From a virus (lineage: Duplodnaviria > Heunggongvirae > Uroviricota > Caudoviricetes), in IMG/VR virus record IMGVR_UViG_2645727991_000022: a stretch of DNA of 31,782 nucleotides. One strand, given 5' to 3'. The notes beneath the pieces are model-generated. The model did not search any database. It was not told where the DNA came from and saw nothing but the letters and a program-made list of their open reading frames with translations. This document shows, one piece after another, positions 26,021-27,832 of the stretch. The position numbers and the translations under genes were made by a program. Position 1 is the first letter of the stretch. The number at the start of each line of letters is the position of its first letter.

Positions 26021-26335
26021 ATGGGCAATAAGAACGGTTACGATCCATCCATACGTAGAGGTGTACACCAGTTCTCCAACAACGGGGTATGGTTCACGGT
26101 CTGTTATCGTGGAAGTGCTCTTGAGCAATTCAAGTTTGGTGATCGGGTGATATTTGAAGGTTCATTAGACGGGGTCTTCTGGCTGGGGACGGTTGAAAGG
26201 GATTGTTTCGTACTGATTAGCGAAACACCATTTAAAGATGTTCTGGATGCTGTGAGTTATCTACATGCCGAACAACGTGTATATAAACAACATGATGATG
26301 ATTGGTTTTGTGGACAAGAAGAACTACCGTTCTAG
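26021..26335 (+). CDS. hypothetical protein (first gene of a three-gene plus-strand operon)
   Basis: 104-aa soluble ORF. A TATAAT element lies about 40 nt upstream and AAGG about 9 nt before the ATG. Followed after 15 nt by the DUF2971-like gene. Confidence 0.5.
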   Translation: MGNKNGYDPSIRRGVHQFSNNGVWFTVCYRGSALEQFKFGDRVIFEGSLDGVFWLGTVERDCFVLISETPFKDVLDAVSYLHAEQRVYKQHDDDWFCGQEELPF

Positions 26336-26362
26336 ATTGTTGCTTAAAAGGTGGTTATTATT

Positions 26363-27172
26363 ATGCCACCTAGGATATCAATAAGAACAATCGGAATCAT
26401 GAAGTTTTATAAGTACGTTGGTGCTGAAACAGCAAAAGTCATCATCCAAAATTCAACGTTAAGATTCACTTCTCCGGTGAATTTTAACGATCCCTTTGAC
26501 TATTTCCCTGCGGTTCAAGAAGAGGGCTTCAGGAAATTTACTCGCCGCATTAACGATGAAATTGGTGATGGGGTAAAGCGATATAAGACCAATCATCGAG
26601 AGACTTCTAAGCATCTCCAGTCACTACGTAGTGGTGAGTTTAGAGATCTATACACACGCAACATGTCCATAAGCTGTTTCAGTAAGTCACCTTTCATACT
26701 CCCGATGTGGGCACATTATGCTGATAACCATGAAGGTTGTGTCATTGAGTTTGAATTCATATCAGACAGCCCTCTAGTAGTAGAGTATCTTAGCTTAGGG
26801 ATTAGTGAACTATCACAAATTCTCATTTCTTTTGAGGTGAACTATTCTGAGGAACGACCTCCGCTTTTTGATGAGAATGGACGTACTGACGGCCCTAATA
26901 CTGGTTTCCATGCTTGTTTAACTAAAGCCAAAGAATGGGAGTATGAGCAAGAAATGCGTGTTGTAACAAAACAGCCTGAAGGGATCTACCCATTTGAAAG
27001 ATCACAAATGACAGGCTTATATTTTGGTATGAAAATTGATAAAAAAGACAAAGCAGACTTATCAAGAATTATAGATGGCTCAAATAATTACACTGGCACA
27101 AAAATACGTAAGCATGATGTGGTTATGGCTTATGATAAATTTGAACTATCAAAAATCCAATTCCGATTATAA
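26363..27172 (+). CDS. DUF2971-like protein
   Basis: N-terminal ...FYKYVGAETAKVIIQNSTLRFTSPVNFNDPFD... and mid-protein ...LPMWAHYADNHEGCVIEFEF... match the conserved signature I recall for DUF2971. Start is placed at the ATG 8 nt after AAAGGTGG (the ORF track begins at GTG 26351). Confidence 0.65.
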   Translation: MPPRISIRTIGIMKFYKYVGAETAKVIIQNSTLRFTSPVNFNDPFDYFPAVQEEGFRKFTRRINDEIGDGVKRYKTNHRETSKHLQSLRSGEFRDLYTRNMSISCFSKSPFILPMWAHYADNHEGCVIEFEFISDSPLVVEYLSLGISELSQILISFEVNYSEERPPLFDENGRTDGPNTGFHACLTKAKEWEYEQEMRVVTKQPEGIYPFERSQMTGLYFGMKIDKKDKADLSRIIDGSNNYTGTKIRKHDVVMAYDKFELSKIQFRL

Positions 27173-27187
27173 GAATGGGATAGGACC

Positions 27188-27832
27188 ATGAATTATTTAA
27201 AACGGACGAATATAATATTAATTTCGCTAGTTATAATTTTATTCATCTTCGCTATCATAGCTTTTGCAAAGGTGGTTTTTAATAGTATGAATGGATTAGA
27301 ATGGGGTAGCGTATCAGATTGGGTAAGTACAGGGTCGTCGATAGCAACAACGTATATAGCCTACCTTGCGTATAAGGCTGCCCCAAATTGGTTTAAACAA
27401 AAGACTTACGAAGCGGGTTTCGACCATGTTTCTGCTCTGATGACTGAATATGATTCAATAGAAAGCGAAATTCAAAAACTTTATTATAACATTTTATTCC
27501 TCAACATAAATAATCCAAAATTTTTAAGCACCTGTAATGAGGTTGAAACATTGATGTATCGAGTAATCTCCTTACTAGGAAAACTCTATGCATGTGAAAG
27601 ATGGGATGTTATTGTATTACCTGAAACACATAGATGCTTTGCTAGATTAAGAAACTTCTGTAATTTATGTTATAAGTTGCAAGGCTATATACGCACTAAT
27701 GACACAATAGCAATTAATAATATTAGAGAAGAATTAGAAACCCTCAGAAAAATTATTACATCTGACTCAACAGATTTCAAGAAAAATATTCATGACTATT
27801 TCCAATTTCCAAATCAAAAAAGCCCACTGTAA
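27188..27832 (+). CDS. membrane protein of unknown function (third gene of the operon)
   Basis: 214 aa with an N-terminal TM helix (IILISLVIILFIFAIIAFA), a second hydrophobic stretch and a Cys-containing helical soluble domain. Starts 15 nt after the DUF2971-like gene. Confidence 0.6.
   Translation: MNYLKRTNIILISLVIILFIFAIIAFAKVVFNSMNGLEWGSVSDWVSTGSSIATTYIAYLAYKAAPNWFKQKTYEAGFDHVSALMTEYDSIESEIQKLYYNILFLNINNPKFLSTCNEVETLMYRVISLLGKLYACERWDVIVLPETHRCFARLRNFCNLCYKLQGYIRTNDTIAINNIREELETLRKIITSDSTDFKKNIHDYFQFPNQKSPL

Follow-up and report, generated by a model that had tools for sequence, protein, structure and literature searches.

The window analyzed here, a 31,782-nt stretch of DNA from a virus of the class Caudoviricetes (IMG/VR record IMGVR_UViG_2645727991_000022), carries a cassette of three genes, designated A, B and C (Table 1). 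With moderate confidence, the cassette is interpreted as the content of an SOS-driven cargo slot of a siphovirus-type prophage, in which A would be the leader gene, B an autonomous Aristaios-like ADP-ribosyltransferase (ART) and C an independent membrane protein. Hidden Markov models (HMMs) for A, B and C were used to compare about 200 loci, which came from plasmids, genomes, metagenomes and IMG/VR. At the level of gene content, this comparison showed that A, B and C are modules that can be separated from one another and that share a single hotspot, blocks of which are co-inherited in some lineages. The original prediction, made from the window alone, had taken the triplet for a candidate system with a soluble enzyme and a membrane effector. 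That idea finds little support in view of the decay of A, the occurrence of A without B, the independence of C from B, the solitary copies of B and the replacement of B in one locus.

Regarding the conservation of the triplet as a unit, the gene order A-B-C is kept in some lineages, and B outside the hotspot was never found with C (more than 150 loci and 625 plasmid records). The order is retained in Enterobacter hormaechei (L218-219; identities of 92-93% for A, 95% for B and 66% for C) and, together with the neighboring EAL gene, in Erwiniaceae (L104-106; 33%, 66% and 39%, respectively), and a LexA box followed by A, B and C also occurs in L110. Gene A is decayed in L001 and L006-9, being frameshifted or truncated after about 46 codons, and in these lineages B (82% identity in L001 and 75% in L006-9) and C are intact. 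Since B persists intact where A has become a pseudogene, A is neither an antitoxin nor an essential partner of B; the candidate role of A as the antitoxin of B was ruled out on this basis, and A is not required by B or C. Conversely, intact A occurs without B in many related prophages, followed by a C-like gene (L010-12 and L206) or by tandem C arrays (L196 and L200), and also without any B or C gene (L013-16).

Gene C behaves in a similar manner. Among the hotspot variants, genes of the C family are found in about 9 of 10 that lack B, often as tandem arrays, and in about 9 of 9 that have it, and this near-equal frequency indicates that the presence of C is independent of B. Moreover, B is missing from 27 of the 30 viral C loci. 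A relative of C stands alone beside an integrase gene in Pantoea (L017), and another lies downstream of a LeoA/LeoBC-like GTPase and a 129-aa protein (L021, 4068-5896). In Leclercia (L217), the place of B between A and a 62%-identical C is occupied by an unrelated 273-aa protein (3126-3947), which has no match in any family library. Gene order and spacing vary as well: A-C-B in L116, A-X-C-C-pseudoC-pseudoB in L023, and B separated from C by 0.4-2.3 kb in L110 and L112.

Outside the hotspot, a 68%-identical copy of B in Serratia is solitary, beside an insertion sequence element and without C, and a copy with 53% identity, carried by 625 plasmid records (for the most part Klebsiella plasmids of the IncF type), is likewise solitary and without C. 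No recurrent downstream partner was detected in 80 diverse genomic B homologues. The possibility that DUF2971 proteins generally have a fixed membrane partner was considered and rejected, as a hydrophobic downstream open reading frame (ORF) was present in 11 of these 80 loci and none recurred. In the Klebsiella IncF plasmid NZ_CP083632.1 (L102), the B copy lies between an SOS-response-associated peptidase gene and ccdAB, and a 107-aa multi-pass membrane protein is encoded 240 nt upstream of it (L102, 3443-3766). Tested as a possible relative of A, this small membrane protein proved to have no relationship to A or C. The recurring A-B-C order fits shared descent of a hotspot block better than functional interdependence.

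Gene B is a further member of an already known class, that of the DUF2971/PDC-S31/Aristaios proteins. Its assignment to DUF2971, proposed earlier from sequence motifs, was confirmed with the Pfam model PF11185 (30.9 bits against a threshold of 22, E=7e-7, domain positions 1-89 of 89), and PF11185 is also found on the 120 listed B homologues (the best 120 of 302), except for three rows without a recorded domain. B matches phrog_1762 (3e-42) and four PDC-S31 models of PADLOC; the best of these, PDLC04990 (8e-37), aligns residues 16-267 of the 273-aa ORF with profile positions 6-254 of 259. This maximal ORF (26351-27172) begins with a GTG at 26351, which is unlikely to be the start of B. The ATG at 26363, which is preceded by an AAGGTGG Shine-Dalgarno sequence, is the publicly annotated start (269 aa, P0001, 100% identical), and most B homologues start at MKFYKY, which corresponds to the ATG at 26399 (257 aa). 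With B starting at either of these two ATG codons, the gap between A and B is 27-63 nt and not the 15 nt reported initially; the three plus-strand ORFs and the 15-nt gap between B and C stand as described.

The protein contains the motifs FYKY...NFNDPFD and MWAHYADNHEGC, and the DUF2971 motifs FNDPFD, MWAHYA..H.G and K..W.YE.E.R are all kept in its homologues. Among 30 sequences with 21-81% identity to B, the invariant residues (numbered on the 269-aa protein) are N42, D43, P44, D46, W116, H118, Y119, H123, G125 and Y161, followed in the second part of the protein by K188, W192, Y194, E195, E197 and R199. A search of the B profile against PDB chains by sequence gave no match. The predicted structure of B has the ART core fold, and in this model the fold appears closest to those of ARTs acting on nucleic acids, namely Tpt1, DarT and Scabin. 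E195-x-E197 would be the obvious candidate for the ExE element of an ART catalytic site.

DUF2971 had been regarded in the original prediction as a family with no assigned function, a view overtaken by recent publications. A 2025 survey assigned DUF2971 to the ART superfamily, close to DarT and AbiGi, on the basis of predictions, and described a modified H-Y-E motif in which the histidine is poorly conserved (PMC12522546). Aristaios, a 316-aa DUF2971 protein encoded by the Lactococcus plasmid pUCCL641, acts as a single-gene abortive-infection system (Grafakou et al. 2024, PMC11381338); it halts phage transcription as well as protein production (PMC11381338, PMC13064643, PMC12967558). The predicted ART fold of B agrees with both the survey placement and Aristaios. 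The PDC candidates of PADLOC were proposed from their embedding in BREX, DISARM or type I restriction-modification (RM) loci (bioRxiv 10.1101/2024.01.29.577857). The PDC-S31 match and the Aristaios precedent make the suggested defense cargo plausible. As the homologues are solitary in the 80 diverse genomes, on Klebsiella plasmids and in Serratia, and as A decays without loss of B, B would be sufficient alone like Aristaios, with no obligatory partner gene.

The LexA box upstream of gene A is a feature newly recognized here, and it predicts induction of A and the trailing cargo by DNA damage. Its 20-nt context, CACTGTATATAATCACAGTA (25973-25992), agrees with 16 of the 20 positions of the E. 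coli SOS-box consensus. A single such box is present in the 31.8-kb window where 0.51 would be expected by chance, so that the count alone is not significant, and the argument is therefore drawn from position and conservation. The LexA palindrome is invariant in an alignment of EAL/A intergenic regions from six diverged lineages. Gene A invariably has the EAL gene as its divergent neighbor and a LexA box in front of it, also where B is missing; of 29 distinct A loci, 23 have the box 36-49 nt upstream of the gene, and the box-less loci have an A fragment, a contig edge or, in L193, a box with one mismatch. Upstream of B homologues without A the box is absent, with one exception (L118). In L006-9, it is kept in front of the decayed A.

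The LexA box overlaps the only TATAAT. A good -35 element is absent in this allele; relatives have a TTGAAT -35 within 13 nt that are missing here. A consensus promoter scan called no promoter at the TATAAT (25980-25985). Of the promoter-like elements ascribed to the cassette earlier, the -10 hexamer within the LexA box is thus retained and a plain consensus promoter is not. Internal promoter-like candidates at 26311-26338 and 26994-27023 are weak consensus matches only. Because the A-B gap is as short as 27 nt and the B-C gap is 15 nt, A-B-C is most simply predicted to be one SOS-inducible transcript. The hairpin noted at the 3′ end is present as well, with its T-run on the minus strand; it would mainly terminate the convergent DUF3800 gene and be bidirectional at best. 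In the phage contigs L201, L207 and L211, which have no recognizable A, strong LexA boxes (TACTGTATATA[AT]AAACAGT[AG]) are located about 1.85 kb upstream of a C-family gene, and a different leader gene may hold the SOS-controlled position there.

Gene A has no match in Pfam, NCBIfam, PADLOC or PDB, and a search of its profile against PDB sequences returned noise only (E about 1). The protein has a strongly conserved acidic C-terminal tail ending in Q(E/G)ELPF, and the nearly invariant tail of the family (window 26294-26335) reads ...DDDWFCGQEELPF. The C-terminal tip of the single-stranded DNA-binding protein SSB is DDDIPF; the terminal [IL]PF following acidic residues in A recalls this tip and may be a partner-binding mimic. 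By analogy with LexA-controlled prophage proteins, the likeliest candidate role for A would be that of an SOS-controlled antirepressor or induction factor.

Gene C encodes a member of a small, fast-evolving and so far uncharacterized family. The N-terminal membrane anchor anticipated for it was borne out by a strong transmembrane helix (TM1) at residues 9-27 (Kyte-Doolittle 3.4). TM1 is followed by a conserved EWGSVSDW loop and a second helix ending in AYKAAPNW, which is weakly hydrophobic here (Kyte-Doolittle below 0.9; 1.1-2.0 in relatives). An AlphaFold2 model (pLDDT 81.8) shows helices at 2-32 and 42-64, forming a hairpin, and then a four-helix bundle at 66-199. The charge distribution favors, and does not settle, an N-in/C-in topology with a cytoplasmic bundle. 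Structure searches gave generic four-helix-bundle matches only, and no family match was found in Pfam, PADLOC, PHROG or NCBIfam. An exhaustive profile search of 1.84 billion representatives returned 235 clusters at 50% identity, and the proteins among the matches listed are at most 279 aa in length.

Comparison of C with its counterpart in L218 revealed 94% identity over the first 80 aa and 47% over the remainder, with 95% identity in the adjacent B; DNA identity falls inside gene C. Tandem arrays of two to five diverged C-family paralogues occur in L196, L200, L208, L212, L213 and L023 (1692-3969). Proteins engaged in an arms race would be expected to combine a conserved anchor with a swapped variable domain and to have tandem paralogues. 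Frameshift-broken copies in some arrays suggest rapid birth and death of copies in the hotspot. A distant paralogue with two hydrophobic helices (18-36 and 45-63) is also encoded at the opposite (attL) end of the element in the window, as the first prophage gene beside a host HAD hydrolase gene.

In the mechanism proposed here, LexA would repress the promoter of the slot, and DNA damage would induce the leader gene A, whose product may act as an induction factor such as an antirepressor. A phage cue would activate B, which would act alone, using NAD+ to ADP-ribosylate a nucleic acid or a component of gene expression; phage transcription and protein production would stop, and the infection would abort. 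C would be anchored in the inner membrane as a separate exclusion or defense determinant. B and C may be co-transcribed and, in some lineages, co-inherited, with neither needing the other. For B we infer the activity, target, trigger and defense phenotype, as we do the roles of A and C.

Several points weigh against this interpretation. The motif I histidine of ARTs is not evident in B, where β-strand 1 reads FYKY. A promoter repressed by LexA agrees poorly with a standing defense of lysogens prior to induction, unless there is some contribution from leaky or internal promoters, and the antirepressor role of A derives solely from the LexA box and precedent. Furthermore, at least five lineages, with B identities as low as 66%, retain a B-C junction of 15-16 nt (the window type, L218-219, L001, L006-9 and L104-106), and a conserved junction would also be expected of a two-gene system. 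Such a system would consist of the ART and a membrane protein C whose bundle senses phage or tethers or regulates B, with A merely as a leader. It would agree with B and C both remaining intact while A decays, with B being followed by C also in L113, and with C standing after other enzyme-like genes (the LeoA-like GTPase in L021 and the 273-aa protein in L217), which a shared membrane partner of swappable enzymes could explain. Nevertheless, a B-C pair is considered unlikely, as C is missing from the closest relatives of B outside this phage family and is equally frequent with and without B inside the hotspot. The A-C-B order in L116 and the 0.4-2.3 kb spacing in L110 and L112 disagree with an obligatory pair, as do C-family genes found alone (L017) or as tandem arrays, and both the validated Aristaios system and the PADLOC model consist of a single gene.

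In phage T4, the ARTs Alt, ModA and ModB reprogram or shut off host functions. B might similarly serve the lytic program of the prophage as an SOS-induced ART that reprograms or shuts off host functions, with C acting on the membrane during lytic growth. Expression mainly on induction is indeed expected from a sole recognizable promoter that is LexA-controlled, and the LexA box is retained upstream of pseudo-A-B-C in L006-9. The probability of such a lytic role is nonetheless judged to be low, since the cassette is dispensable, with B, C or both absent from related prophages, close B homologues reside on non-phage plasmids and chromosomes, the family is found embedded in BREX, DISARM and RM loci (PADLOC PDC), and one B homologue has been experimentally shown to be a defense gene. 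A single system of all three genes, with A as a regulator or antitoxin of the ART and C as a membrane effector, would account for the LexA box-A-B-C order kept in the window type, L218-219, L104-106 and L110. This is largely refuted by the comparative data and very improbable: A has decayed to a pseudogene next to intact B and C, it is also found by itself or accompanied by C alone, B and C can each be present in loci lacking the two other genes, and library scans revealed no macrodomain or other known ART antitoxin domain in A or C. A broader and quite speculative view, likewise of low probability, is that the LexA promoter, A and the swappable genes constitute an undescribed SOS-triggered exclusion or defense hotspot of Enterobacterales serine-integrase prophages, in which the C family would be a new class of exclusion or sensor proteins, perhaps a shared membrane partner of interchangeable enzymes.

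Table 1. Features of the cassette and its surroundings in the window.
Feature	Positions	Strand	Remarks
Distant C-family paralogue, maximal ORF 235 aa	871-1578	+	C-family HMM, E=3e-8
Small terminase gene	24017-24595		Cassette sits between this gene and further cargo genes
EAL-only protein, 224 aa	25160-25834	-	Predicted c-di-GMP phosphodiesterase; Pfam EAL, 3e-22
LexA (SOS) box, CTGT-N8-ACAG	25975-25990	.	Overlaps the -10 of the gene A promoter
TATAAT, -10 hexamer of the A(-B-C) promoter	25980-25985	+	Perfect hexamer inside the LexA box; from sequence reading and alignment
Gene A, 104 aa	26021-26335	+	Leader gene of the hotspot; phrog_2100, 8e-9
Gene B, 269 aa	26363-27172	+	DUF2971 protein; predicted ADP-ribosyltransferase fold; PADLOC PDC-S31, Aristaios-like
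Gene C, 214 aa	27188-27832	+	N-terminal membrane anchor and hypervariable four-helix bundle
GC-rich hairpin, GCCCAC-N6-GTGGGC	27822-27839	.	Overlaps the stop codon of C; from terminator scan and sequence
DUF3800 gene	27882-29051	-	phrog_12991, 7e-130; Leclercia L217 copy 91% identical; convergent to gene C
245-aa protein	29477-30214	+	N-terminus weakly like HNH-like PtuB and PDC-M01B models (E=2.8e-4)

The placement of the cassette in variable cargo DNA beside the packaging genes, which had been proposed from the window, proved correct: it occupies a variable slot with the small terminase gene on one side and the serine integrase gene on the other. The first 843 nt of the window (plus strand) are a host gene for a Cof-type HAD hydrolase (Pfam Hydrolase_3, 3e-65). 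In identical copies of the element, a large serine recombinase gene and then host genes are found downstream of the cargo, and a second Hydrolase_3 gene (188 aa; L002, 16001-16567) lies beyond the recombinase at the other end of the element. The HAD hydrolase gene is probably the integration target, which would place attL at ~844-870, and the prophage appears to extend from roughly 850 to about 4 kb beyond the end of the window. Nucleotide searches with the cassette and the packaging region gave no match in phages of GenBank or in 5,426 complete genomes of E. coli, and tblastn searches of A and C against phages gave none either.

The EAL gene is context and lies outside the A-B-C cassette. It is the conserved divergent neighbor of A, which it adjoins in L010-16, L104-106 and L218-219, and it is found next to A in prophages of Enterobacter, E. 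coli and Erwiniaceae (57-95% identity). The match of its product to NCBIfam PRK11596 is below the cut-off of that model. The EAL gene is a candidate lysogenic-conversion gene that may act on motility or biofilm, and a conserved AATTATTGATC motif is present upstream of its start codon. On the other side of the cassette, the slot with the DUF3800 gene and the gene for the 245-aa protein resembles a small defense or cargo island.

If B is active, the Aristaios/DUF2971 class of ART-like antiphage proteins would extend to Enterobacterales prophages. The conserved LexA box provides a testable regulatory hypothesis, namely that prophage cargo is switched on by DNA damage. The C family consists of compact, quickly diversifying membrane proteins that mark a recombination hotspot, and this hotspot would be a reasonable place to seek new exclusion or defense functions. 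Of the parts described, the leader gene under LexA control and the hypervariable C family deserve further work.

Among known systems, Aristaios resembles B in having a DUF2971 domain with a predicted ART fold and in being a single gene on a mobile element, the likeness being drawn through shared PF11185 membership (PMC11381338). Aristaios is a 316-aa protein of a Gram-positive plasmid, whereas B is a 269-aa protein of a prophage, and neither a LexA box nor a membrane-protein neighbor was reported for Aristaios, unlike B. The PDC-S31 entries are candidates from defense loci, whereas the setting of B is a prophage cargo slot. With respect to DarT, the ART of the toxin-antitoxin defense system DarTG, and the RNA 2′-phosphotransferase Tpt1/KptA, B has no sequence similarity detectable to any PDB chain and no clear motif I histidine, and it contains large helical inserts and the family-specific motifs NDPFD and WAHY..H.G. 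In contrast to DarTG, no gene for a DarG-type macrodomain or NADAR antitoxin adjoins B, as judged from Pfam, NCBIfam and PADLOC scans of A and C. The closest precedents for gene A are the LexA-controlled antirepressors of prophages, 186 Tum and GfoA/GfhA of the Gifsy prophages (Lemire et al. 2011, PMC3121763). Like A, these are small prophage proteins whose promoters overlap an SOS box and whose genes lie outside the immunity region. Gene A differs from them in having no sequence similarity to any annotated family and in that cargo genes are here appended to its transcription unit.

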